Assembly: GCA_036507075.1 (NCBI GenBank) | Contig: DASXQR010000083.1 | Span: forward strand, 64,001-128,000 | Length of the DNA: 64,000 bases | Source of the DNA: Acidobacteriota bacterium | GTDB taxonomy: Bacteria; Acidobacteriota; UBA6911; JACQSX01 | Reading direction: 5' to 3' | Shown here: piece by piece, positions 6,870 to 55,843 of the stretch | Position numbering within the stretch: position 1 is the first letter of the stretch | Layout: each line of letters opens with the position of its first letter | Notes under the pieces: generated by a model | What the model saw: only the letters and a program-made list of their open reading frames with translations | What the model was told of the DNA's origin: nothing | Databases searched by the model: none | Program-made: the position numbers and the translations under genes

Positions 6870-6991
6870 TAAGTTTTCAGGTAAAATGTGAGGGAATCCA
6901 GCCGGTCAGTGGGTGTAATCGCGCATCTCTGGTTGGGAATGCGCAAGAACGGAGCGAACCCGCATCAGTTATTGAAGGCGGCTACGTTGTT

Positions 6992-7086
6992 TTCACCGCA
7001 GAGTCGCAGAGTGCGCCGAGGCATCGCAGAGGCGGGATTGCGGACTCTGCGCGGACTCGGCGAATCTCGGCGTCTCGGCGGTGAAA
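6992..7086. repeat. REP-like imperfect palindrome (TTCACCGCAGAG...CTCGGCGGTGAA)
   Basis: Terminal inverted repeat; related copy at 33899-33990. Confidence 0.7.
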
Positions 7087-7138
7087 GCAATGTGCCGATT
7101 CAAGCATTCCAGAGATTTCAGACCATGACTCTTAACTC

Positions 7139-9719: not shown

Positions 9720-11090
9720 TTAATCCGGAATCTTGTACTTCCTAACCTTATATCTCAGCGTGTCGCGCGAGATGTGGAGCAGTTTGGCTGCGTTTGTCTT
9801 GTTGCCTCGTGCCATCTGCAGCGACTGCTGGATGAGCCGCTTTTCCACATCGTATAGAGAGGCGCCGCCCGGCGGAAGGCGCCACTCCCCATCCCCTTCT
9901 TCGCCCAGCGGGGCGTTGGCCAAAACGCGGATCGGAAACTGTTCTACATCGAGCTGGTCAGAGTCGGCCAGTATCATGGCGCGCTCGACTGCGTTCTTCA
10001 GTTCGCGAACATTCCCCGGCCAAGAGTACTCGGCCAGTATTTTCTCGGCGCTTCGGGTGAGACCCCGGATCGATTTCTTGAAGGTGCTATTGTAGTGAGC
10101 GATGAAGTGCTTTAAAAGCACAGGTATGTCTTCTTTGCGCTCGCGCAGCGGCGGCAGGCGAATCGGGACAATCGAAAGCCGGTAAAAGAGGTCTTCCCGA
10201 AACGCCTTCTTTCTTACCATCGATTCCAGTTCTCTGTTGGAAGCGGCGACGACGCGCACGTCAATAGGGATGTCCTTGACCCCTCCGATGCGGCGCAGCG
10301 ATCGATCTTCCAGGATCCGCAGCAGTTTTGACTGCAGATGAAGCGGGAGTTCTCCGATTTCATCCAGGAAAATCGTGCCGCCATCCGCCAGCTCGAACAG
10401 TCCCTTCTTGCTGGCTCGGGCGTCGGTGAAGGCTCCCTTCTCATGCCCGAACAGCTCGCTTTCCATCAGCGTCTCGGGAAGGGCCGCGCAGTTTTGAATC
10501 ACCAGCGGGTTGGAGGCGCGGCGGCTGTGATAATGCAATGCCCTGGCGGCAAGATCTTTTCCCGTTCCGCTCTCTCCCTCAATCAGAAGGGTGTGGGTCT
10601 CGCTTGCCGCCAGCTTCCTGATCAAATCTTTGGCCTTGCGAATCTCGGGTGAGTTACCGACGATGTTCTCAATCGAGTATTCCGACTTGATCTCCGAGGT
10701 GACGCGGCCTACCGCCGCTCTCAGGTGCTGCGCTTCGAGCGCGTTCTTCAGTGTGTTCTCGAGCCGCTCGAAGTTGATCGGTTTCTCCAGGAAATCAAAA
10801 GCTCCGAGCTGCAAGGCGCGCACGGCGTCCTCGACGGAACCATGCCCGGTAATCATCACAACGGGGAGGTCGGGCCACTGTTTTTTGATCTTGATGAGCA
10901 ATTCCAGGCCGCGCAGGTCAGGCAGGCGCATATCCAGTGTGAGACCATCGACGGGTTGTGCTTCCAAAGTCTGCAGAGCCGCAACGCCGCTTTCCGCCTC
11001 CAAAACGCCATAGCTCCACGATTCCAGTTTCTGCCGGAGCGACCAGCGCAAGAGCCGCTCGTCGTCAACAATCAATATTGTCTTTGCCAT
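9720..11090 (-). CDS. sigma54-dependent response regulator (NtrC/AtoC/ZraR family)
   Basis: Receiver domain, GESGTGKD Walker A, GAFTDA loop, WPGNVREL, Fis-type HTH. Confidence 0.95.
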
Positions 11091-11094
11091 TGGC

Positions 11095-11772
11095 TTATCC
11101 CTTGACCAGAGTGATTTCAAATCCCTTCCGGCCGGGTAGCACTCGAATCGAGCCCTTCATAGCTGCCAGCCGGCGCGCCACAATGCACAAACCCAACCCG
11201 GCCCGGCCTGAAACGGTTGAGAAGAAGGGCCGGAACAGGTTTGAAACAACCTCTGGTTCCATCACGCGCCTTTTGTTCCGAATCTCTATTTGTACCTTAT
11301 TCCCTCCAGAGTTGACTCGTAACTGCACGGGTCCTCCACCATGCTCGACGCCGTTTTGCAGCAGCTCGAAAAGCACAGATTGCAACATTGCAGCGTCGCA
11401 TCGGAGCTGCAGAGATGCAGGAAGGCGCGACACTCGAATATTTTCTGCGCCATCGGGAAGCATTTCGCGGACCGCGTCCACCACAACGTCCAAGAAAACC
11501 GGTTCCATGTTAGGTGCCGGCTCAGTCGTAAAATCGAGAAACTGTTGCAAGACGCGGTCCACTTTCCGGATCTCCGCATCTATCTCGAAAGTGATCTCTC
11601 GGCCTTCGTTCGAGAAGTGTTCGGTATCCCGGAGCACTTCGACGGCCGCCTTGACTGCCGCAAGCGGACTGCGAATCTCATGAGCCAGTCCTGCTGCCAT
11701 TTCTCGGTCCACCAGCCGGGATTTGCGTGTTCTCTTCCTTCCAGCGGATAACGGGTCGACCCGTCCTCTCAT
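11095..11772 (-). CDS. Short sensorless histidine kinase-like protein with degenerate G1 box
   Basis: H-box AHEIRSPL, N-box, FFST..GLGL; RNKRRVM in place of DxGxG. Start uncertain. Confidence 0.75.
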   Translation of the reverse strand: MRGRVDPLSAGRKRTRKSRLVDREMAAGLAHEIRSPLAAVKAAVEVLRDTEHFSNEGREITFEIDAEIRKVDRVLQQFLDFTTEPAPNMEPVFLDVVVDAVREMLPDGAENIRVSRLPASLQLRCDAAMLQSVLFELLQNGVEHGGGPVQLRVNSGGNKVQIEIRNKRRVMEPEVVSNLFRPFFSTVSGRAGLGLCIVARRLAAMKGSIRVLPGRKGFEITLVKG

Positions 11773-11864
11773 CGGCCCATCTTAACAACTCCGGCGGCGG
11801 CTCCTGTACGTTTTTGGGTGTTTTGAACGATGCGCAGTCCTCCCCGCAGCGAACATCACCTAAC

Positions 11865-12013
11865 TCAGTACCGCGGGCGTCAGCCTGCGCCAGGAGGACG
11901 AAACTATCTCCGCCAACGTCAGAACCGCGGGCGTCAGCCCGCGTCGAAACGCAAGAAATCTGAACCAATTTTATCTTGATGATTAAGCGCGGGCTGACAC
12001 CGGCGGTACTGAC
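11865..12013. repeat. REP-like cluster (TCAGTACCGCGGGCGTCAGCC), two direct copies and one inverted
   Basis: Copies near 11865, 11918 and (inverted) 11988. Confidence 0.65.
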
Positions 12014-12050
12014 TTGGGTAAATACCGCTAAGTGTTAGAATCGCATCCGC

Positions 12051-13295
12051 ATGAACACGGAAATGGTGACTTTTTACGAAATCAAGAACTACCTCCATTT
12101 CTCTGAGCTGGATATTGACACCCTTAAACAGCTCGGTCCCATGTTCCGTCCGCATTTGAAGGAAATGGCAGATCGTTTTTATGCGGAGATTCCTGACCAT
12201 CCGGATGCCTATAAGGTATTCAGCGGTCCTGCGCAAATTGAAAGGCTGAAGGAATCGCTGCAGGTGTGGGGCGCCGGTTTGTTCTCCGGAGATTACGGCG
12301 AGGATTACGCGCGGCAACGCTATCAGATCGGCTATACGCACGTGCGCATCCAGCTTGCGCAAAAATATGTCATCAGCGCCATGGCAGTAGTGCGCGAGTT
12401 CCTGCATGAAAAAATAAACGAGCAGGTCGATGACGCGCTCCTTCGCATGCAAGCTCATATCAGTATCGACAAAGTTCTGGATCTGGATCTGAACCTGATG
12501 TGCGAGGCCTACTTCGCAGCCAGCCTGCAGGCGCTGACCGATATCAACCGTCGGCTGGAAGAAATGAATCAGAAGCTGCGTGAATCCAGCCAGGTGAAAA
12601 GTGAATTCCTGGCCAGGACATCGCACGAATTGCGTACCCCTCTAAGCTCGATACTCGGTTTTATCCGGCTTGTGCTGGACGGCCTTTGTGAGACACGGGA
12701 AGAGGAAATGGATTTGCTTAACGATGCGTTTCAAGCCGCCGAGCATCTGCTTTCCATTGTCAACGACTTGCTGGACGTGGCGCGCATTGAAGCCGGCAAG
12801 CTGCAGGTTCAGGGCAGGCCTGTGGACCTTCGACCCATCCTGGACCAGGTTATTTCGCTGACTGCATTGCAGGCCCAGCAGAAAGGCATCAAGTTGTTAG
12901 ATGAAACGCACGATAAAGACCTGCCAAGAGTCTGGGCCGATCCGGAACGCTTGAAACAGGTAATCATCAACATTGTCGGAAATGCAGTTAAATTTACAGA
13001 CTATGGCTATGTAACCGTGCGTGCTCGATCGGATGATTCCTTCGTGCGTTTTGAAGTGATTGATACAGGGATTGGCATCGAAAGAGAGAGGCAGAGGGAG
13101 CTGTTCGAAAAATTCAAGCAGGTCGACAGTTCGCTGACACGCAGGCACGGCGGGAGCGGGTTGGGACTGGCCATCAGCAAGCATTTGATAGAAACAATGG
13201 GCGGAGCGATCGAATTGTATAGCGAGGGCTTAGGCCGCGGGACCCACCTGCACTTCACCGTTCCTGTTTGGCGAGAGCCTTCGGATGACAAATGA
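12051..13295 (+). CDS. Globin-coupled (protoglobin) sensor histidine kinase
   Basis: N-terminal globin fold (FY..I, IGYTHVRI proximal His), SHELRTPL, NAVKFT, DTGIG, GSGLGL; no TM helix. Confidence 0.9.
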   Translation: MNTEMVTFYEIKNYLHFSELDIDTLKQLGPMFRPHLKEMADRFYAEIPDHPDAYKVFSGPAQIERLKESLQVWGAGLFSGDYGEDYARQRYQIGYTHVRIQLAQKYVISAMAVVREFLHEKINEQVDDALLRMQAHISIDKVLDLDLNLMCEAYFAASLQALTDINRRLEEMNQKLRESSQVKSEFLARTSHELRTPLSSILGFIRLVLDGLCETREEEMDLLNDAFQAAEHLLSIVNDLLDVARIEAGKLQVQGRPVDLRPILDQVISLTALQAQQKGIKLLDETHDKDLPRVWADPERLKQVIINIVGNAVKFTDYGYVTVRARSDDSFVRFEVIDTGIGIERERQRELFEKFKQVDSSLTRRHGGSGLGLAISKHLIETMGGAIELYSEGLGRGTHLHFTVPVWREPSDDK

Positions 13296-13702
13296 AAACA
13301 GTGCTGGTAGTCGAAGACAACCCGCTGATCCTGAAGTTCTATCGCATGGCTCTGGAGCGTCAGGGTGGATTTAGAGTGCGCACCACCGAGAATGTAAACG
13401 AGATAGTTACCCTGGCGCGGTCCAAGAGTGTGGACGCCGTGATTCTGGACATCTCGCTTTCCAATGCCGAGTATCAGGGTAAGAAAATCGATGGCATCCA
13501 AATCGCGAGGATCTTACGCGAGGATCCCGCGTCTGCTGATATTCCGATCCTGGTGATTACTGCGCATGCGATGGAAGGAGACCGCGAGCGCATTATTCTG
13601 GCCACCGGCGCCGACGATTATCTGCAGAAGCCGATCTACGACACACAGAAACTGGTGGCGAAAATCAATGAGTTGATCCGTTCGCGCAACGAGCAGCCTT
13701 AA
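13292..13702 (+). CDS. Single-domain response regulator
   Basis: VEDN, ILD, TAHAM, KP motifs; ATGA overlap with the kinase. Confidence 0.92.
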   Translation: MKTVLVVEDNPLILKFYRMALERQGGFRVRTTENVNEIVTLARSKSVDAVILDISLSNAEYQGKKIDGIQIARILREDPASADIPILVITAHAMEGDRERIILATGADDYLQKPIYDTQKLVAKINELIRSRNEQP

Positions 13703-13902
13703 AGCACTCCACGCGAGTGTAAATCAAGGATGACGTAGGCAAGGTACAACACAAGCCCGGCGATGCCGCAAGTCAGGCCAAGTCCCAGGAACAGCGTGAC
13801 GGTGCGTGGCGTGAACCAGATCAGGGACACAACCATGGTGGCCAGGGCGATCGTGATCAGGATGGCTGAGATTTGCAAGGTAACGGCAGTTAAGGTTTTC
13901 AT
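13699..13902 (-). CDS. Small two-TM membrane protein
   Basis: Two hydrophobic helices; ATGA-coupled to the cytochrome gene. Confidence 0.7.
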   Translation of the reverse strand: MKTLTAVTLQISAILITIALATMVVSLIWFTPRTVTLFLGLGLTCGIAGLVLYLAYVILDLHSRGVL

Positions 13903-14492
13903 CGGTTCTGCGCCTGTTTTTGCTCTGGATGCACCGGTCCGTGACATTGCAGGCAGTCGGTCTCTTTAGCGGCAATCTGCTTTTGCAGATCTGCGTCATG
14001 TTTCTCCAGAAAACGTCGAGATTCTCCGTGGCAGTGGAGGCAATTCTGGAAATTGTAGGTCCCGCGTAACTTAATGGGGAGCCCGTAAGTGCCGGTTTCG
14101 TACTTCCAAACATGCCGAATCCCCGCCATTTTCGCTTTCACGGGACCGAATACTGTGTAATCGGTATGGCACGAGTAGCACTGATTTTCGAGAATGAACC
14201 GATTCTGATAGTGCCTGGAAGCCAGCGTTTCGCTTTTGGGGTTTTTCAGGTCATTAATAAACGGCCCCATTACATGACATGAACCGCAGAACTCCGGGCT
14301 CTTGGCGTTCTCCATTGTCGTATGTGCGCCCAGCCACAGTGACAGTGTAGGAAACACCGCAACTCCAAATAGAAGAAGCCAGTGTCGCTCGGGCGAATTG
14401 GGCCTTTTTGCCACTCGCACCATCCCCACCAGAATCGCCAGCGAGACCAAGCCCACTACCAGAGAGATGGAATGCAGGTTGAGAGTAGTCAT
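13899..14492 (-). CDS. NapC/NirT-like membrane tetraheme cytochrome c
   Basis: Two N-terminal TM helices; FCGSCHVM, CYSCH, CLHCH, CLQCH. Confidence 0.85.
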   Translation of the reverse strand: MTTLNLHSISLVVGLVSLAILVGMVRVAKRPNSPERHWLLLFGVAVFPTLSLWLGAHTTMENAKSPEFCGSCHVMGPFINDLKNPKSETLASRHYQNRFILENQCYSCHTDYTVFGPVKAKMAGIRHVWKYETGTYGLPIKLRGTYNFQNCLHCHGESRRFLEKHDADLQKQIAAKETDCLQCHGPVHPEQKQAQNR

Positions 14493-14969
14493 AAGGAAAT
14501 GGCAGCAGTTTTCGGACCAGATTCTCACTGGCACTCGGTCTTTATTCGAAACGGCGGAGTTACTCGGCGGTTCTACCTGCTTCACAATCTGACGTCTGGG
14601 ATGATTATCTTCAGTTTCCCATTGCTGGCCAACGGTTAATGTAGTCTCTGGTCAGGGTTTCTTCACTACAGCGAAAAACTTCGCGCGCTCATGGGGCCAA
14701 TCGGGCACGGTCGCATGCGTTGGCCGCCGCGTTCTCCCGAGCGGGTCTTTTCGCGCAGAGTCTGGGTGAATTGCCAAAATGGACGGCTGTCAGGATTCAC
14801 TTTTCTGAAAGCTTTGGCCCCCTTGCCGGCTGGGCCGAGTGCCGAATTGCGAGTTTAGGTGCTTCCACACTCGTCGAGCACTGGCCGCCCATGGCTTCTA
14901 TCGCCCTCTGCGTTTTCCGCAATGCGCAATTACTCCCACTGGTGTGAGAAAACACGCGGTTTTTTTTGA

Positions 14970-14984: not shown

Positions 14985-15072
14985 GGCACCACCCACAATT
15001 TCCCGGTGCCGATGATGATCTGTTTTCAGTCAGTTAGTCAGCCCGGGCGGAGGTCGATTCTGTGGTCGCTTC

Positions 15073-15087
15073 TGGCACATGAGTTGC
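15073..15087 (+). promoter_or_regulatory. sigma54 promoter (TGGCACATGAGTTGC)
   Basis: Perfect TGGCAC-N5-TTGC consensus. Confidence 0.75.
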
Positions 15088-15469
15088 TCTCTAAAAAGTG
15101 GCTAGTGAATCTGCTTCACAGCAGAGGCGTAATGAACGCAAAGTTTCCGCTGAGCTTGCGATGGAAACTCTGCGGAAACTCTGCGCTCTTCACACGTGAA
15201 GGACATGTGCACCTCTGAGGCCGCTTCCAGCGGCCTTTCCCGCAGGGGTTTCAGCCCCGGCCTTCCCAGGCCGGGGGTTAAACGCGACCTAAAATTATCC
15301 GAGGCCGTTTTAACGGCCTTTTTCCTTCTGTCCGCCGGCCTTGAGGCCGGCCGACTGCTCCGTCGGATCCTGGGTGCATTCCAATCTACGGATCAAAGTG
15401 CCTTGAGCATGGTGTTCTTTTTTCCTCCGGATGTAGTCACAAACAACAGATTGATCCATAGAATCTGCA

Positions 15470-15784
15470 GCGGCGTGAAGCTGGTTTCCCGCATTTCGGA
15501 CGAATCTATGACCTGAAAAAGGTCCTGAAATCACTTCCTCGACCGGTGCTTATTGGCCCCGCTGCGTTAGGCGGGTTTTCTTGAGCGTTAAGTGCGCCTT
15601 TTCATCCATCCTGAAGGCAAATTACGCGCGTTGGGACTGCAACATCAGCACCACCAAGGACCAGAAGCATGGATCCGATGTCGACCCGTTGAAAGCGGCG
15701 ACAGTCCTGGCGAGGACTGCCATGACTTCAGACGTAAAGCCGGAAACCCTCGAGGCGCAGATCAGAGCCGAAATTGCCAATTAA
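15470..15784 (+). pseudogene. Frameshifted remnant of an unknown gene (copy 1)
   Basis: Paralogous to 17612-17776 plus 24004-24052. Frame ITSSTGAYWPRCVRRVF...WDCNISTTKDQKHGSDV is kept with synonymous and conservative changes. Confidence 0.6.
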
Positions 15785-16370
15785 TTTGAATTGCCGGCGG
15801 GGCGGCGACGAGTAACGAGACAGAGTCGATCTCCCCTTGATTCGTATCAGCTGACGGAACGCTCGGAGAAATATGACCGGCTTTCCCAACGAATGTTCTT
15901 CTGATAAAGTTGATGATCATGATGCCTTCTTGTGTTGCTTGGCGTAAGAAACATCTAGGCCTTAGCGCTGAGAACACGGACCCTCCTTCGGCCGAACCGA
16001 CGCCTTTTTAGTCTCCTTTTACTTTCAGCTTTAGTTGAACTTATTTCTGGCGCAGCAGCCGTTTTCCAGTCTCATACCCGGCCGAGGTGCCTGGAGAGTT
16101 GTGGAGGATTCCGTGGATCTAGCAACGATAATTGTGATCGTTCTTGGCGTTGCCTTTCTTTGCTTTGTGTTTTGGCTCGCGACTGTGAGCAGGAGGGATC
16201 CGAAGCAATAAGGAATAAAGCGAGAACACTCCGGCAGTATCTGTGAGAAAACTCAAGAGGGACCAGCCTGCTATGACCTGTCAGCCTGATCCCCGAGGTT
16301 GGTGAATGTTTACGTTTATCGAAGAGCAGGGAAAAGAGGCACACTGCAATCGTCCCCAAAGTATCAAAAA

Positions 16371-17519
16371 ATGGGTTGTCTACTAAGACTGGCACTGGAT
16401 AATTCGCTGCCTCTGCTGGCCGGAACATCGGCGGCCCTTCTATGGGCAAATCTCGACCCCGGAGTCTACCAATCGGTGTCGGAACCGTTGCATTTTGTCG
16501 TAAACGAAATCGGAATGGTATTCTTCTTCGCCCTGGCCGCAAAGGAAGTCTGCGAAGCGTTGTTGCCCGCAGGACCCTTGGCGTCGTTGAGCCGAGCCGC
16601 CCTGCCGTTGATGGCGACAGTGGGAGGAATGGTCGGCCCCGCCAGCCTCTATCTTCTCGGTGCCTGGTTCTTCGGACATAATGAGTTAGCAAGGGGCTGG
16701 GCGATTCCTTGCGCGACTGATATCGCATTCAGCTACTTGACAACGCGAGCAATATTTGGGGCGAAGCATCCGGCAGTCATTTTCCTGCTGTTGCTGGCAC
16801 TTGCTGACGACGCATTGGGACTCGTCATTCTCGCCTCGTTTTATCCGACTTCCAGCATCAATCTGTTCTGGCTCGCTCTGCTCGCAGGCGGAGGAGTCGG
16901 GCTCGGTCTGCTCCTAAAAAAGACCGGATGGCAATCCTTTTGGATCTATCTATTCGGGCCGGGTGTACTAACCTGGATCGGCTTCTATCTTGGTGGAATT
17001 CATCCAGCGCTGGCTCTTGTCCCAGTTGTATTTTGCATGCCGCATGAGTCCAGGGATCTCGGGATCTTTGACGACCGCGAGGTTGGTCAGAGCGATACAC
17101 TCAGCAGATTAGAGCGCTGGTGGAAAGATCCCGTCCAGGTCATATTAGGCCTTTTCGGCTTTGCCAACGCGGGAGTAGAGCTGACTGCTACCGGGCCCGC
17201 GACATGGCTTGTGCTGGGCGGACTGCTGCTCGGCAAACCTCTTGGCATTCTTCTAGCGACGCGGCTCGGAGCATTATTCGGATTGCGTCTGCCGGACGGG
17301 ATCGGTTGGAAAGATCTGAGCGTGGTTTCTGCTGCGGCAAGCATTGGGTTCACTGTCGCGCTTTTTGTCTCCACGGTGGCGTTTGCATTCGGTACGGCGC
17401 TGGACCACGCAAAAATGGGCGCGCTGCTGAGCCTTGTTGCAGCACCTCTTTCCATAATTCTGGCAAAAATTCTGGGAGTGAAAAAAAGGAGACTTCATCG
17501 TCTTTTTCAATTCTCATAA
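16371..17519 (+). CDS. nhaA: Na+/H+ antiporter NhaA
   Basis: GWAIPCATDIAF, LALADDALG, FANAGV, GKPLG and SIGFTVALF motifs. Confidence 0.92.
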   Translation: MGCLLRLALDNSLPLLAGTSAALLWANLDPGVYQSVSEPLHFVVNEIGMVFFFALAAKEVCEALLPAGPLASLSRAALPLMATVGGMVGPASLYLLGAWFFGHNELARGWAIPCATDIAFSYLTTRAIFGAKHPAVIFLLLLALADDALGLVILASFYPTSSINLFWLALLAGGGVGLGLLLKKTGWQSFWIYLFGPGVLTWIGFYLGGIHPALALVPVVFCMPHESRDLGIFDDREVGQSDTLSRLERWWKDPVQVILGLFGFANAGVELTATGPATWLVLGGLLLGKPLGILLATRLGALFGLRLPDGIGWKDLSVVSAAASIGFTVALFVSTVAFAFGTALDHAKMGALLSLVAAPLSIILAKILGVKKRRLHRLFQFS

Positions 17520-17611
17520 TGCTCCACACCGCTTTCGGCGCTTTACTGACATGGCGAGCGACCGCCTGAAGCAACGCAAATCAGATGCCAGGATTTCCGT
17601 CGGAGTGCTAC

Positions 17612-17776
17612 AGAGGCGGGAAACAGGTTTTCCAGCATTGCGGGCGAATCTACAACCTTGAAAAAGGCCTGAATCACGGCCTCAACCGGTCCTTATTGGC
17701 CCCGCTGTGTCAGGCGGATTTTCATGAGCGTTCAGTGCGCCTTTTCACCCATGCTGGAGGCAAATCACACGCGTTG
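17612..17776 (+). pseudogene. Left half of the split remnant (copy 2)
   Basis: Similar to 15470-15633; similarity stops abruptly at 17776. Confidence 0.6.
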
Positions 17777-17863
17777 CGGCCCGTTGACCGATCCCACAGC
17801 GCGGAATCTCCTTGCCCGAAGCGTGAATAGAAGCTAATTTTCACACGGGGTAAAGTCCCGTAT

Positions 17864-17878
17864 TGGATCGCGAGTTGC
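17864..17878 (+). promoter_or_regulatory. sigma54 promoter candidate (TGGATCGCGAGTTGC)
   Basis: GG-N10-GC with TTGC directly before the operon; the -24 box deviates from consensus. Confidence 0.4.
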
Positions 17879-17901
17879 GTTACTGTAGTGTCGAAAAATC
17901 T

Positions 17902-18333
17902 ATGAAACGAAGCGAAAAGCTAAGAAAGTTGTCCGAAGATCACCATCATGGTCTGGTGGTGGCGATGGTCCTAAAGGGTGAAAGAAAGCTTCCCGAGGCG
18001 CTCGGCTGGAATGGGCCTCTGCGCACGATCCGTGCCCGCCTGCTGTCCTTTTGGGATACAGACCTGCAAAAACATTTTCGGCAGGAGGAAGAGGAAGTAT
18101 TTCCCGCCGCCGATTTAATCTCACCCGCCGCGCATGCACTTTGCGAGTCTCTCCGCTCTGAGCATCAGGTAATCAGGCAGCAGATCGGTAATATCCGAGC
18201 TGCTAACGAAAAGGATCTGGCGCCGTTACTGGCCGGTCTGGGAAATATTCTGGAACAGCACATCCGAAAGGAAGAGCGCGAGCTGTTTGAGCTGATAGAA
18301 GCAGCGGGTGTGGAGGATATGAAGGACAGCTGA
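17902..18333 (+). CDS. Hemerythrin-like (HHE) domain protein
   Basis: LSEDHHHGL, HFRQEEE..FP, EH and HIRKEERELF motifs. Confidence 0.85.
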   Translation: MKRSEKLRKLSEDHHHGLVVAMVLKGERKLPEALGWNGPLRTIRARLLSFWDTDLQKHFRQEEEEVFPAADLISPAAHALCESLRSEHQVIRQQIGNIRAANEKDLAPLLAGLGNILEQHIRKEERELFELIEAAGVEDMKDS

Positions 18334-19370
18334 TGTTCAGGACGATCAATATCCGCGCATTGGCAGTCGCTGCGCTGACAACACTTATTCTGGTGCTGAT
18401 GATCGTCGCCGGTTCGCGCAATCTTCAGAACTTCGACGCAGCGCTTGTCGGTTATCTGTTCGCCACGATTTTTGCGGTTTTTGGAATCACCTACCGATAT
18501 GCGGTCTGGCTGCAAAGACCCCCTACACGCTTGTACTGGCGCCGCGGTTGGCAACTGCTGTTTTCGCGGCATCTGGTCGGCGGCGTCAAAGCTATTATCC
18601 GAAGCATAACGACCGACTACATAGCACAGCGGTTCATCGCCAGAAGATCGTGGCCCCGGTGGGCGGTTCATTTTCTGCTCGCTTGGGGATGTATCATCGC
18701 GTTCGCGGTCACCTTTCCGCTTGTTTTCGGGTGGATTCATTTTGAGACTCTCCCAGGATCTCCGATTCAATATCGGACCTTCATCTTTGGGTTTCCAGCG
18801 ATGCGTTTCTATGTTCAATCGGTGCTGGCGTGGAACATATTCCACGCTCTCGACTGGGCGGCCGTGATGGTGGTTGCCGGCGTCGTTTTCGCCGTCAGAA
18901 GACGACTCGTCGACCCCGGCCTGCTTGCAACGCAGACATTTTCTCGTGACTGGCTGCCACTCATAATTCTGTTTGCGGTCTCGATCACGGGTCTTCTTCT
19001 GACGGCGAGCGCGATGTGGATGAAAGGGGCGCACTACAGCTTTCTGGCGCTGACGCACGAAATTACAGTGATTTTCTTCTTAATCTGGCTGCCCTTCGGG
19101 AAGTTCTTTCATATTTTCCAGCGCCCGGCTCAATTGGGAGTTTCCGTCTACAAGCAGGCAGGCAGTGATCTGCCTGCAGCACGGTGCGCGCGCTGCGGAA
19201 CAGAATACGCCTCAACCCTGCATGTGAACGATCTTAAACAAGTAACAAAAGAACTTGGGATGGATTACGAATATTCCTCAAACGACCATCATCTTGATCT
19301 CTGCCCTGCCTGCAAGAGGGCTCGCTATGCCGAGTCTCACATGCAGGCGAAGAGAGGGCAAGCGTTCTAA
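18333..19370 (+). CDS. NarI/DsrM-like polytopic membrane protein with C-terminal CxxC..CxxC
   Basis: About 7 TM helices; H-x17-H pair ending PFGKFFH; CARC and CPAC tail; TGATG coupling. Confidence 0.7.
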
Positions 19371-19377
19371 ATCACTT

Positions 19378-21549
19378 ATGGCAAAACTGCCTCAGACCGG
19401 AGACGAATTAATCAAGATTTACGGACCCCACCTGAATTACCCGCGCAAGGAGTCGGGCGTCGCTTCCGATGTACCTGACCATCTGGTTCAAACTCATTGC
19501 TGCTTCTGCGGAATGCAGTGCGGTATCCAGCTCAAGGTTAAGGACAATCGCGTTGTCGGTTTTGAACCCTGGGAAGAATTCCCATTCAACGAGGGGCGGT
19601 TGTGCCCGAAAGGTGTGCAGCGTTATTTGCAGAACGAGCACCCGGACAGGCTGCTGCACCCGCTGATCCGCTCTGACGCGGGATTCCGGCCTGGAAGCTG
19701 GGACGAAGCGATGACAAAGACGGCGGCTGAAATCCGCCGCATCCAGGACAAATACGGCAAGAACGCTTTCGCGATGCTTTCCGGTGTGTCGCTGAATAAT
19801 GAGAAATCTTATCTGGTCGGCAAGTTTGCCCGCGTGGCACTGCAAACCGCCAATCTTGATTATAACGGCAGGCTCTGCATGGTGAGCGCAGGGGCGGGAA
19901 ACAAGAAAGCCTTCGGCATCGACCGCGCCGCCAACCCCTGGAGCGACTTGCTGCACAGTAATCTGATTTTCATCGCCGGCAGCAACGTGGGCGAGTGTTT
20001 TCCCACTTTGACCGATTACATCTGGAAGGCGCGCGATCGCGGCGCTCGTCTCATTGTTGTAGATCCGCGCGAGACCCCGGTAGCGCGCACCGCCGATCTT
20101 CATGTGGCGATCCGTCCGGGAAGAGACCTGGCCCTGATGAATGCAATCCTGAGCCTGCTTATTCAGTGGAACCGCCTGGACCACGAGTTCATCGCTCATC
20201 ACACCACCGGATTTGAAAGCGTGCGCCAGGCGGCCACTGAAATGAGCCTCTCGGACGCGGCTCACCTGTGCGGCGTTCCCGAGGGCCAGATAATCAAGGC
20301 TGCACAAATGTGGTCGGATGCCAAAAACTCCATCCTGCTGCATGCGCGCGGGATCGAACACCATACCAAGGGCGTGGACAACGTACTCAGTTGCATCAAC
20401 CTGGTCCTGGCAACCGGCCGGCTTGGACGTAAGGGATGCGGCTACGGAACGATCACCGGCCAGGGCAATGGACAGGGAGGCCGCGAGCACGGCCATAAGT
20501 GTGACCAGCTTCCTGGAAACCGCGACATAGAGAACCCCGAACACCGCAAATACATCTCTGACGTCTGGGGCATTCGGGAAGAAGACCTTCCGCGTAAGGG
20601 ACTGAGTGCGCAGGAAATCGTGGATGCGATACATAAAGGCGAGATCCGCGGCCTGCTCTCCATCTGTTTTAACCCGCTCGTATCGCTTCCCGACACCAGC
20701 CACACGCGCCAGGCACTGGAGAAACTCGAGTTCTATGCCGCAATCGACTTTTTCCTGAATGAGACGGCGCATCATGCCGACGTGGTTTTCCCGGGTTCGC
20801 TGCACGAGGAGGACGATGGCACCAGCACCAGCGCTGAGGCGCGCGTGATTCGCTGCCGTAAAGCCGTCGATCCTCCCGGTGAGGCGCGCCAGGATTGGAA
20901 GATTCTCTGCGAGATAGCCGATCGACTCGGCCGTGGAAAGCATTTTGATTACCAGTCATCGGAGCGGATTTTTGAGGAACTGAGAATCGCCTCGCGCGGC
21001 GGAACGGCAGATTATTACGGCATCACTTATGACAAGATTGAGAAAAACTACGGAGTCTTCTGGCCCTGTCCTTCGGAAGATCATCCCGGCACTCCGCGCC
21101 TGTTTGAGGACCGGCGCTCGTATCATCCGGACGGAAAGTTTCATTTTCAAGCCGTCCGTTACCGTCCATCGGCGGAAGAGACTGACGCCGAATTTCCGGT
21201 TGTTCTAACTACCGGCCGCGTAGTGTCGCAGTATCTCAGCGGAACGCAAACGCGTCGCATCGGGATGCTCGTAGATCAGTATCCTGAGCCCAGGCTGGAG
21301 ATACATCCTCATCTGGCGGCGCGCTATGGAATCGCCACGGGCGACTTGGTCAGAGTGACCAGCCGGCGCGGCAGCATGGAGCTGCCGGCCCTGGTCACAG
21401 AGACCATTCGAGCCGATACGGTCTTCATTCCATATCATTGGCCTGGAAAGCAGGCGGCCAATCAGTTGACGCAGCGCGCGCTCGATCCTGTTTCCAAAAT
21501 CCCTGAATTCAAGGTTTCCGCAGTCCGGTTGCAGAAGGTGGCGCGATGA
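19378..21549 (+). CDS. Molybdopterin oxidoreductase, NasA/NapA-type nitrate reductase catalytic subunit (cytoplasmic)
   Basis: CCFCGMQC...LCPKG 4Fe-4S, RLCMVS Mo-Cys motif, [14 protein letters not shown] end; no Tat signal. Confidence 0.88.
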
Positions 21550-22112
21550 GCGAAGCGGAATTCTTCGTTGACCCGCAACGCTGCATCGGGTGCCACGCGT
21601 GCGAAACGGCATGTGCGGAATGCGGCACGCACAAAGGTCTGCCGATGATCCACGTCGACTATGTAGACCGGTCGAGATCGACACAGACCGTTCCAATGGT
21701 CTGCATGCATTGCGAAGACCCCGCCTGTGCTCAGGTATGTCCTGCGTACGCCATTCAAAAAACCGCCGATGGGGTAGTGCACTCAGCGACGACGCCGCGC
21801 TGCATCGGGTGCTCAAACTGCGTGCTCGCTTGTCCGTTTGGAGTACCGAAGTACATGGCAGGAATGGACCTGATGATGAAATGCGACATGTGTTATGACC
21901 GCACTTCGATAGGAAAGCGGCCGATGTGTGCGACGGTCTGTCCCACGGGCGCGCTCTGGTACGGTTCGCGTGAACAGCTTCAGAAGGAGCGCAGGAGCGT
22001 TCCAGTGAATCAGTTCCGGTTCGGCGGTCAGTTGGTACGTACAAGAGTTCATGTGATGGTCCACTCAGGCGAGACGCTGGTGCAGATAAAGGGAGTGAAT
22101 TTGCGAGGGTAG
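21546..22112 (+). CDS. DmsB/NrfC-like 4Fe-4S electron transfer subunit
   Basis: [46 protein letters not shown]. Confidence 0.92.
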
Positions 22113-22637
22113 GTGACGGATATGAGACCCCAATCGGTTGAGACTCCCAGGTCGGCGGAGCCCAAATGGAAAAATGATTTTCCGCTGGATTACGGCGAAG
22201 ATGAACACGTTAGTCGCCGCGAGTTTGCCAAGTTTCTGGTACTCACAAGTTTGGGTCTCTTTGTCGGAAATTGCTGGATTGCGTTAAAGCAATGGTTCGG
22301 CCCGTCGAAAGGCGGCTTTCCTCAAATACGGATTGCCGCATTGGATCAGATTCGCATTGGAGAAATGCTTCAGTTCCGATACCCCGATGAAAAGTCACCG
22401 GCCATTCTGATCAGGCTTTCGGAAACAGAACTAGTCGCCTATGGGCAGAAGTGCACCCACCTGTCCTGCGCGGTTTACTGGGAACCGGGGGATGGAAGGA
22501 TCGCCTGTCCCTGCCATCACGGCTTTTTCGATGTGCGCGATGGCCATGTTTTGGCCGGCCCGCCGCCCCGTTCCCTGCCGCGCATTCCGCTCAGAATCCA
22601 GGGAGCAGACATCTTTGCCACGGGAGTGGAAATATGA
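22113..22637 (+). CDS. Membrane-anchored Rieske 2Fe-2S protein
   Basis: SRREF followed by a TM helix; CTHLSC and CPCHHG boxes; GPPPRSL. Confidence 0.92.
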   Translation: MTDMRPQSVETPRSAEPKWKNDFPLDYGEDEHVSRREFAKFLVLTSLGLFVGNCWIALKQWFGPSKGGFPQIRIAALDQIRIGEMLQFRYPDEKSPAILIRLSETELVAYGQKCTHLSCAVYWEPGDGRIACPCHHGFFDVRDGHVLAGPPPRSLPRIPLRIQGADIFATGVEI

Positions 22638-22864
22638 GTGATATTAAGGACGCGCAGAAGAACATTACTGCCCAGAAGCGCAATGCCATTCTGGCTGGAA
22701 TCATCAGCATTCTTTGCATATTCGTGATCGCCCAGGTGTGGTTGCTAACCGCCGCTCTGGAAGCTTACCTGGCTGGAAACCCGGACGTTGCCATACCTGC
22801 GGCACTGGTCGCGGCAGGTTGCTTTGCGCTTGCCGCAGGATTGCTTCGGTACCTGCCTGATTAG
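22634..22864 (+). CDS. Small two-TM protein (DUF6755-like)
   Basis: ATGA overlap with the Rieske gene; QVWLLTAALEAYLAG. Family name recalled, not searched. Confidence 0.75.
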   Translation: MSDIKDAQKNITAQKRNAILAGIISILCIFVIAQVWLLTAALEAYLAGNPDVAIPAALVAAGCFALAAGLLRYLPD

Positions 22865-22886
22865 CTAGTTGCTAATGAAGGTTGTG

Positions 22887-24065
22887 ATGAAAGACTCGAA
22901 CAGGAACTTGACGCTCTCCACGCTTGCCTTTGCTGTGACCTTTTCCTGTTGGGGCTTGATCGCTGCGCTGGCGCCTCTCTTCAAGACCTCATTCGGTTTG
23001 AGTGCGACACAGGTTGGAATAATGGTGGCGATACCGGTCCTTCTCGGGTCTGTAGGGAGGTTGGGCGCAGGGTGGCTTGCGGACCGTTTCGGAGCAAGAA
23101 GCGTTATGGCGTTCCTGCTGATTTTTGGAACGATCCCACCGCTTGCGCTGAGCTTTGTTCGTTCTTACGAAGCGGTCCTCTTCTGGGGTTTTTTCCTCGG
23201 CGCGGCGGGAACTTCGTTCCCCGTCGGAGTCGCGCTTGTGTCGCGTTGCTTCCCAAAGGAGCGGGCCGGGTTTGCCCTGGGTGTTTACGGGGCAGGTAAC
23301 ATCGGGCAGTCGATCGCCGTGTTTTTTGCGCCGGTGCTGGCGCGCGGCGTCGGTCCGGATTGGACTTTCCGGGCATTTGCGCTGCTATCGGCCCTCGGCG
23401 GGATGCTGGTCTGGCTCCTGATGAAAGAACCTGACCACGGTCGTCCTCAAATGAACTGGCGTGAAACGGCGGCTGTTTTTCGCGAGAGGAAAACCTTTAT
23501 TCTGAGTCTGTTCTATTTTTTGACTTTTGGCGGCTTTATCGCGCTTGGGATCTTTCTGCCCACATTGTTGCGTGAAATGTTCAGCCTTTCAGCCGCTGAC
23601 GCCGGCGCGCGAACCGCAGGGTTTGTGCTTGTCGCCACACTTGCGCGTCCTCTGGGTGGATGGCTCAGCGACAGTTGGGGAGGTCAGCGGATGCTCATGT
23701 TCGTCTTCGGAGGACTTGCAGCCATAGCGTGGTTGATGTTCAGTCACAACATAGTCCTTTTCACCTTTTCGGCCCTCGGCTCCGCCCTGTTGCTGGGCCT
23801 GGGCAATGGTGCCGTTTTTAAACTGGTGCCCGAGTACTTTCCGGTACGCACCGGCACGGTAACCGGCATCGTGGGCGCAACGGGTGGATTGGGCGGGTTC
23901 TTCCCACCACTGGTGCTGGGCATGTTCCGAGACCAGTTTGGAAGTTACGGCCCTGGATTTTTGCTGCTCAGTGCGTTCGCCGCGGCATGTCTGTTGATCA
24001 ACTGGACTGCAACATCAACACCGGCAAGGACCAGAAACATGGATCCGATGTCGGCGCGGCGATGA
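22887..24065 (+). CDS. narK: NarK/NasA-family nitrate/nitrite MFS transporter
   Basis: MFS topology; GSVGR, GAGNIG, FGGF, ARPLGGWLSD, GNGAVFKLVP and GGLGGFFPP signatures. Confidence 0.88.
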   Translation: MKDSNRNLTLSTLAFAVTFSCWGLIAALAPLFKTSFGLSATQVGIMVAIPVLLGSVGRLGAGWLADRFGARSVMAFLLIFGTIPPLALSFVRSYEAVLFWGFFLGAAGTSFPVGVALVSRCFPKERAGFALGVYGAGNIGQSIAVFFAPVLARGVGPDWTFRAFALLSALGGMLVWLLMKEPDHGRPQMNWRETAAVFRERKTFILSLFYFLTFGGFIALGIFLPTLLREMFSLSAADAGARTAGFVLVATLARPLGGWLSDSWGGQRMLMFVFGGLAAIAWLMFSHNIVLFTFSALGSALLLGLGNGAVFKLVPEYFPVRTGTVTGIVGATGGLGGFFPPLVLGMFRDQFGSYGPGFLLLSAFAAACLLINWTATSTPARTRNMDPMSARR

Positions 24066-24375
24066 TTAGAACCACAATCATGGTGCTGGTAACCTGATCC
24101 CTCATCCTGCGTGGCCGCCGGCAGCCATCACCAGAGTTGGGATCGCATTCCTGGTGGGTAAGGCACCGGCAGCGGGCTTTCGGGGAAGCTCTTGCCAAAC
24201 GGGAGGAGCGTGGGCGGCATCAGTGATTCCATACGAGCATCATGCCCTCGATCAATGCCATTATTGCAATGCCGGCGGCGAAATGCGCTGAGGCGCGATC
24301 TGCCGCCGGTATTTTTTGAGAGAAGGCGGCCGGATGGAGAAAGTACTAAAGATTCTCCTCAGGTAAATCGTCATC

Positions 24376-24792
24376 TCAGAAGACGTGTTTCACGTTCTCG
24401 CCTTGAATCATTACCTCCTCGATTGTCGTCTCCTTTGCCGGATTGGTGCCAAACCGAACTTCGGTGGCCTTTGCTTTTATCTCCAGAGGCTGGACATGAC
24501 ACTTCAGTCTCGTGATCTCCTTGTCTGTGGGTTTCTCCCACCCGGCGTGACGGCGCTCAACGATCGGCTTAAAGATGATACTGTGGCTCTCACCGACCGA
24601 TTTGTGCTGAAGCTGATAGAGACCCGGTTGTAACAGGACTTCTCCTACGCGGACTGGCGAGCTGAAAGTGATCTCGCCCTTATTTCCCACGCGCACGGTC
24701 CCGGGCCGCTCGGCTAACAGTGGAATACAAAAGCTTCCCAGAAGAGTCATAAGCAAAGCCCCTTTTGAAAAGTATTTCTTTCCGTAATTCAT
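24376..24792 (-). CDS. Secreted hypothetical beta-rich protein
   Basis: Signal peptide, GAGAGG RBS, sigma54 promoter upstream. Confidence 0.7.
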   Translation of the reverse strand: MNYGKKYFSKGALLMTLLGSFCIPLLAERPGTVRVGNKGEITFSSPVRVGEVLLQPGLYQLQHKSVGESHSIIFKPIVERRHAGWEKPTDKEITRLKCHVQPLEIKAKATEVRFGTNPAKETTIEEVMIQGENVKHVF

Positions 24793-24842
24793 GAATCCTC
24801 TCTTTCCTTTCTGTGTATCACCTTGCTTCATCCGGATGAATA

Positions 24843-24857
24843 GCAATCGCGATGCCA
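24843..24857 (-). promoter_or_regulatory. sigma54 promoter (TGGCATCGCGATTGC)
   Basis: Near-perfect consensus 50 bp upstream of the ATG at 24792. Confidence 0.75.
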
Positions 24858-24978
24858 GTTTGGTCCGCGGTTGTTTGCCCGGGAATTTCGGATAGAGGGT
24901 CTGGAGTGCCGAAGGAAAGTACTGCGTGAAATCGCGCATCACTGCGTGTTTTCCAGCAGGCACCCGAAAAGCGCGGCG

Positions 24979-27342
24979 TTAATACGGCCACTTCCAGTCG
25001 CGAATCTCAGGCATGTCGTCGCCGTATTTACAAATGTACTGCTTATGTTCGAGGAGCTTGTCACGCATGGCTTGCTTGACATAGGCAGCCTTTGAACCTA
25101 ACTTCGGTAGGCGCTCTATAACGTCTTCAACCAGGTGGAAGCGGTCGAGGTCGTTAAGAACCGTCATGTCAAACGGCGTCGTGGTCGTGCCCTCCTCTTT
25201 GTATCCACGCACGTGAAGGTTGCGGTGATTTGTGCGACGGTAGGCCAGCCGGTGAATCAACCAGGGATAACCATGAAAGGCGAACACGACAGGCCTGTCA
25301 GTTGTAAAGAGCGAATCGAAATCTTTGTCAGACAACCCGTGCGGATGCTCCCGCGCGGGTTGGAGTGTCATCAAATCGACGACGTTGACCACGCGAACCC
25401 GTAGTTCCGGAAAGCGGTGACGGAGGATATCCACCGCCGCAAGTGTTTCCAGCGTCGCAATGTCGCCGGCACACGCCATCACAACGTCCGGCTCTGCACC
25501 TTCGTCGTTGCTTGCCCATTTCCAAATGCCTATACCTGCGGTGCAGTGTTTGATGGCGGCATCCATATCGAGATATTGCAGCGCAGGTTGCTTGCCCGCC
25601 ACAATGACATTCACGTAGTGGCGGCTCCTCAGGCAATGGTCCGTCACGGAGAGGAGCGTGTTGGCGTCGGGCGGAAAATAGACACGAACGATTTCCGCCT
25701 TCTTGTTGACGACATGATCGATAAAGCCGGGATCCTGGTGGCTGAAGCCGTTGTGATCCTGCCGCCAGACATGCGAGGTGAGCAGATAGTTGAGAGAAGC
25801 AATCGGACGGCGCCACGGAATATGACGCGTCACTTTCAGCCACTTGGCATGCTGGTTGAACATGGAATCAACGATGTGAATAAACGCCTCGTAACAGGAG
25901 AAAAAGCCATGCCGACCGGTGAGCAGGTAACCTTCCAGCCAGCCCTGGCACATATGTTCGCTCAAGACCTCCATTACCCGCCCGTCAGGTGAGATATGGT
26001 CGTCGCCGGGCGAAATACTGCCGGTGAAAACTCGGTCGGTCACCTCAAACACTGCACCCAAGCGGTTTGAGGCTGTTTCGTCCGGGCCCATCAAGCGGAA
26101 ATTACGACTTTCGGCGTTACACTTGATAACGTCGCGAAGGAATCGTCCCATCACGCGTGTGGCTTCTGCCTCCAGGGTGCCTGGGTTCGGGACATCGACG
26201 GCGTAGTCGCGAAAATCCGGCAGCTTTAAATCCTTAAGGAGCAGCCCTCCATTGGCGTGGGGGTTGGCACCCATGCGAAGCCTTCCTCGGGGCGCAAGTT
26301 CTGCAAGCTCCGGCACAAGCCGCCCGTTTTCATCGAATAGTTCTTCGGGCTTGTAGCTGCGCATCCACTGTTCAAGCATCTTTAGATGTTCCGGCTTGCT
26401 TGCCAGCTCTGCCAGCGGAACCTGGTGGGAGCGGAACGAATTCTCTGTTGGCAAACCATCAACGATCTTTGGCCCGGTCCAACCTTTTGGCGTACGCAGC
26501 ACGATCATCGGCCACCGCTGACGGCGGAAGAAGCCATTGGTTCGGGCGTCTCTCTGAATTGCCTGGATCTCGGCGAGCACTGAGTCGAGTGTGTGCGCCA
26601 TGAGTTGATGCATCTTTTCCGGCTCGTTGCCCTCGACAAAGTATGGCGTGTAGCCATAACCGACAAAAAGGCTTGTCAGCTCTTCGTCGTTGAGCCGCGC
26701 CAGGAGGGTGGGATTGGCAATCTTGTAGCCATTCAAATGCAGAATGGGCAAAACGGCGCCGTCATGCACCGGATTGAGGAACTTGTTGGAATGCCAGCTC
26801 GCGGCCAGGGGGCCTGTCTCCGCTTCACCGTCGCCGATGACGCAAGCTGCCAGTAAGTCGGGATTGTCGAACACGGCACCGTAGGCGTGAACCAGCGCGT
26901 AACCAAGTTCGCCACCTTCATGGATTGATCCGGGGGTTTCCGGTGCCACGTGGCTCGGAATGCCGCCGGGGAATGAAAACTGTGTAAAAAGCTTTTTCAG
27001 CCCCTCGGTATCCTGCGAGATGCTGGGATAAACCTCGCTGTATGTTCCCTCCAGGTAAGTGTTGGCGACCAGACCGGGGCCGCCATGGCCCGGGCCGGTG
27101 ATGTAGAGAACATTCAGATCATGCGCCTTAATCAGGCGATTAAGATGCGCGTAAATGAAATTAAGCCCCGGCGTCGTCCCCCAGTGGCCAAGCAGTCTCG
27201 GCTTGATGTGGCAAAGCTCCAGGGGCTTACGCAGCAGAGGATTGTCGTACAGGTAAATTTGACCAACCGAAAGATAATTCGCCGCTCGCCAGTAGGCATT
27301 TATCTTCCGTACTTCCTCTGCAGTTAAGGGTGTTTCTTTCAT
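24979..27342 (-). CDS. xfp: Xylulose-5-P/fructose-6-P phosphoketolase
   Basis: [24 protein letters not shown] and [12 protein letters not shown] motifs. Confidence 0.97.
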
Positions 27343-28423: not shown

Positions 28424-28463
28424 ATGGAGTTAAAACATCACCACAAAGGCACAACGGGGCAGA

Positions 28464-28555
28464 GCCGCAACCAAACACGTCATCGGTCATTAGTCATTAG
28501 TTCGTCGGTTAAAGAATCTTGCTAAAAAAACAAGAAGATCGCCAACTTGTTACAC
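28464..28555 (+). repeat. Dispersed ~92-bp element, copy 1
   Basis: GCCGCAACCAAA...AAAGAATCTTGCTAAAAAAACAAGAA...AACTTGTTACAC; close copy at 36154-36244. Confidence 0.85.
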
Positions 28556-33898: not shown

Positions 33899-33990
33899 TT
33901 CACCGCAGAGCCGCAATGAACACCGAGTTTCCGCAGAGATTCCATTGCTAACTCTGCGGGGCTTGCCGTCCTCGGCGACTCTGCGGTGAA
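33899..33990. repeat. REP-like palindrome (TTCACCGCAGAG...CTCTGCGGTGAA)
   Basis: 12-bp perfect terminal inverted repeat; relative at 6992-7086. Confidence 0.75.
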
Positions 33991-34157
33991 TGCGAGGCTC
34001 CGAATCAGTAGCTGGACCATTTGGGCAACACGCCCTTAAAAGCCGAGACTACTGCGAGTCCGTTGAAGCGTACTCTCAGCAGCGAACGGAATATTCTGGC
34101 TGGGATCTTCGTAGAAAGCGAAGAATTCGGAGTATAGACAACGACTTACAGAACTTC

Positions 34158-36047: not shown

Positions 36048-36153
36048 GGCAGAGAGAAATTATAGCGGAAAAACGAGTGTCGAGTGTTGAGTGGTCTAGT
36101 TTGTGCTGCCCATCGAGGAAGGCCCTCACCACAGAGGCACAGCCCGGCCGCAG

Positions 36154-36244
36154 GCCGCAACCAAACGCGTTATCGGTCATTAGTCATTGGTTCATTAGTT
36201 AAAGAATCTTGCTAAAAAAACAAGAAATTGCCAACTTGTTACAC
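36154..36244 (+). repeat. Dispersed ~92-bp element, copy 2
   Basis: Close copy of 28464-28555. Confidence 0.85.
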
Positions 36245-38427: not shown

Positions 38428-38448
38428 GCGCCGCCTGCTGCGGCGAGT

Positions 38449-38789
38449 GGGCGGGTTTCGGGTTTGCGGGTTCGCGAGTTTGCGAGTACCGGGTTTGCGA
38501 GTTCCGGGTTGGCGAGTTTCGGGGTTGCGGGTTGCGGGTTTGCGAGCGGGTTACAAACGAGTTACGGATTGGCGATCTCACGATTCGATTGAAAAATTCA
38601 AAGCTGAAAATCGCTTCGGAATGTTGAATCTATGTTTTCTCAATTGGCAATTCTGAACCCGTAACTCGCCAACCCGCAACTCGCCAACCCGCAACTCGCC
38701 AACCCGCAACTCGCCAACCCGTAACCCGCCAACCCGCAAACCCGCAAACCCGTAACCCGCAAACCCGCAAACCCGAAACTCGCAAAACC
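38449..38789. repeat. 7-8-mer (GGGTTGC/AACCCGC) repeat arrays in inverted orientation
   Basis: G-rich array at about 38449-38560 and complementary C-rich array at 38656-38789; relative at 59160-59232. Confidence 0.85.
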
Positions 38790-48365: not shown

Positions 48366-48600
48366 CGCGACCGTAAGCCCGGACTATTCATAAATCTTCA
48401 CCGCCAAGAACGCCAAGAGCGCTAAGAAAAGCGGCAAGGACGGGGGCTGAAAACTTGAAGCATGAAGACTACCGAGATGAAAAGAAAAGGTTAATGACCT
48501 TCATGCTTCAAGTTTTCAGCCCCCGTCCTTGCCGCTCTCTTGGCCTTCTTGGCGGTCTTCGCGTTAAGTCTTTTATGAATAATCCGGGCTTACGGTCGCG
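48366..48600. mobile_element. Nested palindromic MITE-like element
   Basis: Outer inverted repeat of about 29 bp; perfect 38-bp inner inverted repeat at 48430-48467 and 48499-48536. Confidence 0.6.
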
Positions 48601-55734: not shown

Positions 55735-55843
55735 CCCTGGCCCCATTCAAAAAAACCTAAAGCGCTAAGAACGCAAAGAACGCCAAGGCTATTCTTAGCG
55801 CTCTTTGCGTTCTTGGCGGTTAGGTCTTTGAATGAGGCCAGGG
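55735..55843. mobile_element. MITE-like palindrome CCCTGGCCCCATTCAAA...TTTGAATGAGGCCAGGG
   Basis: 17-bp inverted repeat with one mismatch enclosing AAGAACGC repeats, as in 48366-48600. Confidence 0.55.

Follow-up and report, generated by a model that had tools for sequence, protein, structure and literature searches.

A two-copy repeat split exactly by a resident nitrate-reductase-like operon in an Acidobacteriota genome, tentatively read as a swap of neighbouring segments

The DNA analyzed here (the window) is a 64,000-nucleotide stretch of an Acidobacteriota bacterium genome (assembly GCA_036507075.1, contig DASXQR010000083.1, positions 64,001 to 128,000 of the forward strand). It carries two copies of a short repeat, and the two halves of the second copy are separated by the 6,227 bp (17777–24003) of an operon that resembles nitrate reductase operons. 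The split is real and unusually clean, and it looks like a one-off local rearrangement of a resident operon's flank. The tentatively favored reading, judged from sequence, is that the exact split records a one-off local swap, in which a 48-bp piece of the repeat (S2) and the operon would have exchanged order through three break-and-rejoin steps without loss (a probability of roughly 0.4; this figure and the gradings of the alternatives below are judgements, not computed values).

The split repeat

BLASTN comparison of the window with itself pairs 17608–17776 with 15465–15633 (83.6% identity over 171 columns, E 5e-42) and 24004–24053 with 15634–15683 (92% over 50 columns, E 3e-13). On copy 1 the two matches abut at 15633/15634, with neither a gap nor shared bases, and the exact split of a second paralogous copy with no base lost, as first described from the letters alone, is confirmed. 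When the whole 6.1-Mb genome was searched neither half had further copies, so the halves are not independent high-copy repeats that happen to lie here. The pieces are as follows.

15465–15692, no strand: copy 1, unbroken (A, S2 and 11 further bases), with no coding or RNA identity found
17608–17776, no strand: A', the left part of copy 2, 83.6% identical to 15465–15633
17777–17787, no strand: the first 11 bases of the block, starting with CGGC, the copy 2 continuation beyond S2 (10 of 11 bases identical to 15682–15692)
24004–24051, + strand: S2, the displaced 48-bp middle piece of copy 2 and 16 in-frame codons of the narK tail (44 of 48 bases identical to 15634–15681; also frame and tail profile)
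24052–24062, + strand: a second CGGC (24052–24055) and a 7-mer (24056–24062) that is also present in copy 1 at 15695–15701

The left end of the block belongs to the repeat

The first 11 bases of the block (17777–17787) match 15682–15692 at 10 positions, in exactly the register at which the match of the right half ends. The block start and the right-half end overlap by four bases, 17777–17780 and 24052–24055 both being CGGC (this 4-mer has a genome frequency of 0.0098). Random genomic 11-mers match equally well at this exact place in only 2 of 400,000 trials, at a rate of 5e-4 within 15 bases (15670–15700), and at 5e-3 anywhere in 15465–15800. The genome contains 18 low-copy split pairs, and among the 12 tested (six pairs with reversed order were left out) only the pair at 17777 shows such a block-start match, the others having 5–7 of 11 bases. 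Reading A', then 24004–24051 (S2), then 17777 onward gives an ungapped alignment to copy 1 through 15692, whereas the previously proposed join of A' to the right half onward stops matching copy 1 after 15685, seven bases short of that. Beyond the 11-base match a further 8 of 17 bases agree, which is borderline (0.05), and when gaps are allowed the remainder of the operon leader resembles the DNA that follows copy 1 no better than chance (69% of random windows). Since the block start takes up copy 1 at the point reached by the right half, the arrangement before the split was most likely A', then S2, then the operon, as far as such an alignment can tell. The displaced piece is thus describable as S2 just as well as the operon, and the view of 17777–24003 as a block unrelated to its split target is not supported, since its left end belongs to the same repeat.

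The narK tail

The narK reading frame continues through the right half of the repeat to a stop codon at 24063–24065. S2 makes up 16 whole codons of narK, and taking it out preserves both frame and stop. The tails of homologues after the last conserved Cys have a short hydrophobic-then-basic pattern. Against a profile of 116 distinct tails of this kind (from 119 homologues), the tail found here scores −18.7 bits; the homologues themselves have a median of +11.4 (not leave-one-out), and of 20,000 random peptides from the genome 80% equal or exceed the score of this tail. The four nearest narK relatives (66–68% identical) have other tails from Asn onward. Judged against its family, the tail is foreign, in agreement with the original prediction that the NarK C-terminus is read from the target.

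This foreign tail counts against a very improbable alternative, in which a second operon copy would have been deleted and left copy 1 as its scar, A' would belong to the native flank of the operon and the right half to the native tail of narK. There the exact fit would come free, and the length of the tail (25 residues from the anchor Cys) is typical of homologues; the tail nevertheless misfits the family profile, not only in the narK frame but also in the peptide frame first proposed for the repeat (−5.9 bits on the same profile), and the 11-base match at 17777 would be left unexplained.

A resident operon

The following features bear on the history of the operon; G001 is a genome of the same family and another genus.

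17902–24065, + strand: operon of a hemerythrin, a membrane protein, a NasC-like molybdopterin oxidoreductase, a 4Fe-4S protein, a Rieske protein, a DUF6755 protein and a NarK-like MFS transporter (Pfam, NCBIfam)
17864–17878, + strand: predicted sigma-54-type −24/−12 site (pattern scan), 23 bases before the hemerythrin ATG (17902)
9720–13702: regulator cluster, with a sigma-54-dependent response regulator and a histidine kinase (− strand) and a protoglobin-sensor histidine kinase and a response regulator (+ strand) (Pfam, NCBIfam, synteny at 45–77% identity)
13699–14585, − strand: NapC/NirT-like multihaem cytochrome c and a small membrane open reading frame (ORF), at the start of the 4.2-kb stretch between regulators and operon that is absent in G001

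All 11 regulator and operon genes match G001 at 45–81%, although the G001 operon is spread over two contigs. The four regulators lie about 0.2 kb from the hemerythrin gene in G001 and 4.2 kb from it in the window; the extra material in the window (13.7–17.8 kb) consists of the cytochrome c, a transposase stump, copy 1, nhaA and A'. G001 also has a sigma-54-type pattern 23 bases upstream of its hemerythrin start. By chance this pattern occurs once per 11 kb of strand. Because of the synteny with G001 and the same spacing of the putative promoter, the operon is, on this comparative evidence, a long-standing resident of the region and not foreign DNA dropped into a gene. Nor does third-position GC content set it apart (0.57–0.67 in operon genes, 0.57–0.70 in flanking genes). 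That the 6.2-kb block was newly acquired as unrelated DNA is thus not supported, given its synteny with the upstream regulators and a composition equal to that of its flanks. That the block contains no transposase, on the other hand, was correctly noted, as its seven ORFs are all metabolic; as a classical insertion sequence, composite transposon or integrase island it has no mobility gene, and self-comparison of the window gives no repeat between the block ends.

The original proposal, that some unspecified mechanism placed a foreign 6.2-kb block exactly within an unrelated gene, is therefore improbable. The zero gap on copy 1 and the foreign narK tail are in its favor, but the block starts within the repeat, the G001 synteny and promoter spacing speak for residence, the supposed target has no gene identity, and the right end of the block is plain coding sequence without an element end.

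The operon shares its core gene set with NasC-like operons that carry NarK, 4Fe-4S and Rieske genes, but its proteins score under the NasC and NarK cut-offs: the NasC-like protein has NF047855 as its best NCBIfam match at 847 bits (cut-off 1100), and the NarK-like transporter reaches 222 bits (cut-off 312). Activity on nitrate would follow from the gene content. The core operon genes recur with narK in many metagenome loci (40–53 of the 83 loci examined, G001 among them). In 53 of the 83 narK is accompanied by the 345-residue membrane protein (18333–19370), which has no Pfam family, a weak QmoC/TcuB likeness and a C-terminal Cys pattern. The protoglobin-sensor kinase, response regulator and sigma-54 activator are linked to the hemerythrin/NasC-like operon with its conserved sigma-54-type promoter. 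This linkage suggests, from gene order, control by oxygen or NO sensing; each regulator gene lies near the operon in few distant loci (2–4 of 83 per gene, 80 of the loci being distant metagenome loci and G001 being included).

Junctions and alleles in other assemblies

The right junction (24003/24004) is crossed by one Logan contig of sequencing run X1 (19917–25744) with one differing letter; X1, about 90% of which was read, may be the source sample itself. All four proteins of the narK cluster, which come from NCBI, Logan and JGI assemblies, have the same tail, and one of them has a residue change elsewhere. Run X3 has a 224-bp contig that spans the unbroken point of copy 1 without a difference, with 24 bases on its left side (short of the 31-base rule). 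Among 31 pieces listed none crosses the left junction (17776/17777), and coverage by X1 is interrupted by a single hole between about 15300 and 19900. Contigs thus support the right junction, and those listed leave the left one without such support. The left junction would be an assembly error if S2 truly lay on both sides of the operon, and the lack of a crossing contig among those listed is what this explanation would predict. It is nonetheless hard to credit, as the junction has no homology on which an assembler could slip and 0.99 of the sampled words of 15000–24500 (n = 973) are present in X1 (0.94 in X2). There is no RNA sample among the holders listed for words of this stretch, and the holders indexed, compared as contigs, are all near-identical to it.

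The empty site expected in relatives if the block were an insertion did not come to light, nor did an ancestral allele. A DNA search of 60 relatives returned three matches of 28–31 bases only; exact patterns occur in no metagenome contig, in one genome contig and in one viral contig, neither of which reaches beyond 19–24 bases; plasmids gave a single 35-base match; and the narK-neighbor loci contain no empty-site or ancestral allele.

A swap of neighboring segments and its alternatives

The pieces of copy 2 now stand in the order A', 11-base end piece with the operon, S2, and those of copy 1 in the order A, S2, end piece. In the proposed swap the ancestor would have been A'-S2-operon, the repeat being the operon's own upstream flank, and a single balanced event would have exchanged two neighbors, S2 (48 bp) and the operon (6,227 bp). 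Three same-strand breaks (at A'/S2, at S2/operon and between the narK end and CGGC) would have been rejoined with no base gained or lost; put most simply, S2 would have hopped 6.2 kb and landed in frame at the end of narK. All three breakpoints appear to be reused, and so break-and-rejoin, not copying, would be implied. As a result the cytoplasmic tail of NarK would be 16 residues longer, and 48 bp would be gone from a position about 115–160 bases upstream of the predicted sigma-54 start.

No particular enzyme can be assigned to the junctions. The leading guess would be a Y1 (HUH) transposase working off its own element, since the S2 junctions fit the rule of IS608 (the same tetranucleotide, a clean donor and no duplication). 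The genome has 12 Y1 transposase matches, and one lies 2.3 kb from the left junction:

15218–15456, − strand: 3' stump (15313–15456) of an IS200-like Y1 (HUH) transposase gene with REP-like hairpins, ending 9 bases to the left of copy 1

Intact copies of this transposase are present on contigs C223 and C32, and PF01797 and NF033573 match the intact copy; the intact local enzyme exceeds the cut-off of the IS200 model (66 against 55 bits) but not that of the REP model (22 against 80 bits). No TnpB domain was found in the genome. IS608 integrates on the 3' side of a tetranucleotide identical to the one at its left cleavage site, and the donor it leaves is closed with no base gained or lost (PMC3201880). 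If S2 moved and the proposed ancestor is right, both its donor and its target site follow GCCG when read on the minus strand, and, on the same assumption, the donor was sealed cleanly with nothing duplicated (the alignment is ungapped and the frame kept). S2 is thus like members of IS200/IS605 in having the same 5' tetranucleotide at donor and target, a clean donor and neither inverted repeats nor target duplication (PMC3201880); it differs in being a 48-bp, two-copy sequence without subterminal hairpins, guide sequence or transposase. The operon itself cannot be read as such an element, as its 4-mers differ on both strands; its left end has a weak likeness to the local hairpins (4.6% of random windows reach it, and the comparison was chosen post hoc), and its right end has none.

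The TnpA-REP class cuts at a distance from its hairpin (PMC3333891) and exchanges strands in vitro (PMC3333891, PMC8266576). The likeness here is a Y1 element with repeated hairpins in the genome, one stump of which abuts copy 1; the difference is that reported cleavage sites in that class are CT or CA dinucleotides near the REP, and here 2.4 kb separate the left junction from the closest hairpin. It is unlikely, though conceivable, that a hairpin-bound Y1 (HUH) transposase would have peeled 48 bases of ordinary chromosome without element ends from upstream of the operon and pasted them in frame 6 kb away by way of a shared tetranucleotide. The second guess would be end-joining by Ku/LigD, as the genome carries Ku and two LigD polymerase domains. 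Bacterial non-homologous end joining captures fragments in breaks free of homology, but in the cited study the captured ends are changed on both sides, mainly by deletions (PMC6379672), and the three joints here lose nothing.

Regain of the operon through a homologous anchor, though itself doubtful, is nearly as likely as the swap. Here the recipient would have carried A'-S2 and downstream DNA without the operon, and a relative's repeat lacking S2 would have paired with it by way of A; homology would have stopped where S2 begins, and the fragment end, cut within the narK tail, would have joined there, so that the resident S2 was pushed behind the operon. The exact fit would then be the end of homology, the cut narK tail would be explained, and so would both short matches to copy 1 (17777 and 24056); the 7-mer and the short implied ancestral tail fit this course better than they fit the swap. 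A' could serve as the anchor, and ComEC and DprA are encoded in the genome (as they are in 10 and 11 of 14 control genomes). A model with one anchored and one illegitimate end that shifts a resident piece downstream has been proposed for effector-immunity arrays (PMC5361080), and homology-facilitated illegitimate recombination is in general terms alike in its single homologous anchor, its one non-homologous joint and its resident sequence shifted behind the block (PMC5361080, PMC6382021). The narK/S2 joint, in contrast, shares no bases and so has no microhomology. Such a regain would also have to be preceded by three events (the operon lost, S2 lost from the donor, and a further small stretch lost from the recipient within 4 bases of the first), the process is reported to be rare, the joint of 17776 to 24004 is absent among 15 joints listed, and no donor allele was found in the searches.

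A tandem duplication of S2-operon, followed by collapse of the second operon copy and loss of the first S2, is unlikely. Duplication and deletion steps are each a common kind of event. No short ancestral tail is needed on this account, and the genome is rich in material of the kind (13% of its bases are repeats, and there are the 18 low-copy split pairs). The last deletion, however, would have to begin at the exact start base of the duplication and end within 4 bases of the other, and no sequence feature marks those places.

Several observations weigh against the swap of S2 and the operon. The match of the 7-mer at 24056–24062 to copy 1 has a chance of 0.002, and the swap must treat it as a coincidence. 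Without S2, narK would end 9 residues past the last conserved Cys, and only 1 of 116 homologous tails is so short (median about 23). The operon is present in one of four same-family genomes (two of these are 63% and 77% complete), and the synteny argument depends on that one genome. The ancestral allele is absent from every collection searched, in which records very near this genome may be left out, and the left junction is uncrossed among the pieces listed. S2 has no stable hairpin (fold z −0.3 and +0.3) and no resemblance to the hairpins of the local Y1 element, and the flanks of the stump's element family (13 read) do not end in the shared 4-mer.

Identity of the repeat

A peptide that had been read through the repeat remains unrecognized. 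Against 1.84 billion representatives it has three matches, namely its own copy and two repetitive 1,100-residue proteins; its frame has only three weak matches in 400 genomes of the phylum (E 0.002–0.009), and an atlas search with it gave no feature match. None of the six frames of the repeat has a Pfam match above cut-off. The antisense and third frames, with stops as X, gave none among 332 and 43 longer candidates (weak tests), and in 136 genomes of the class they gave 1 and 3 matches, which is chance level. Rfam has no match to the repeat, and its folding z lies between −1.4 and +0.4. The 17 substitutions between copies 1 and 2 in the two ungapped blocks fall 10, 2 and 5 times on positions 1, 2 and 3 of the peptide's frame, a pattern that, taken at face value, does not look like selection on that frame; the two frames with an excess at third positions each contain TGA in both copies. 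Reading this shared TGA as selenocysteine is unsupported by the frame searches. Likenesses to serine recombinases, dif sites and universal stress proteins, noticed by eye from their motifs, were dropped, as was a terminator-like hairpin in both copies (3 found, 2.8 expected). The repeat could be what is left of a decayed coding sequence, or else regulatory DNA of an upstream region. The split sequence is thus indeed unrecognized, having no protein or RNA relative in these searches, and its status as a gene is unsupported.

Other repeats and neighboring features

The stump's Y1 family comprises G000:C223:19150–20110, C32:1–720, C201:22580–22970, C24:5860–6410, C193:10460–10710 and window 15218–15456; two members are intact, three are cut inside the gene at differing points and one is a gene-less derivative. 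Repeated GC-rich hairpins lie on both sides of the gene, a build like that of REPtrons. A second hairpin repeat family of about 75 bases has dozens of copies in the genome, among them 15115–15190, 33899–33994 and 6979–7102. Two IS91-type fragments in the genome are unconnected to the split repeat. Further zero-gap insertions or deletions relative to a paralogous stretch occur at G000:C29:18384–19033 (650), C152:33438–34353 (916), C2:19312–19710 (399) and C30:11118–11245 (128 bases); none of the four contains a Y1 transposase. Long palindromic intergenic elements lie at 38443–38789, 48366–48600, 55735–55843 and 60959–61050, and 28438–28555 and 36126–36244 form another two-copy repeat (87%). One gene fills much of the space between the two copies of the split repeat:

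16299–17519, + strand: NhaA-type Na+/H+ antiporter (PF06965; under the NCBIfam cut-offs)

Directly before nhaA, at about 16114–16212 on the + strand, is a short ORF (about 32 codons) that has a ribosome-binding-like site and encodes a single hydrophobic stretch. Synteny of nhaA and of the gene downstream of the operon is absent in five relatives.

Implications

As it stands, the finding amounts to one scar of rearrangement in a single assembly from soil Acidobacteriota, with no second example, no new mobile element and no new gene. A narrow literature search found no report in which a Y1 transposase brings DNA other than its element into a reading frame, and such a case may be reported elsewhere. 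There is a warning in it: what looks like an exact "insertion into a paralogue" may be neighbors that have traded places, and the opening bases of a presumed insert deserve comparison with the target. If the Y1 (HUH) reading were true, this would be a natural case of such a transposase moving DNA that is not its element into a reading frame, and Y1 enzymes would then be scar-free shufflers of short host segments, adding peptide pieces and shifting enhancer spacing.

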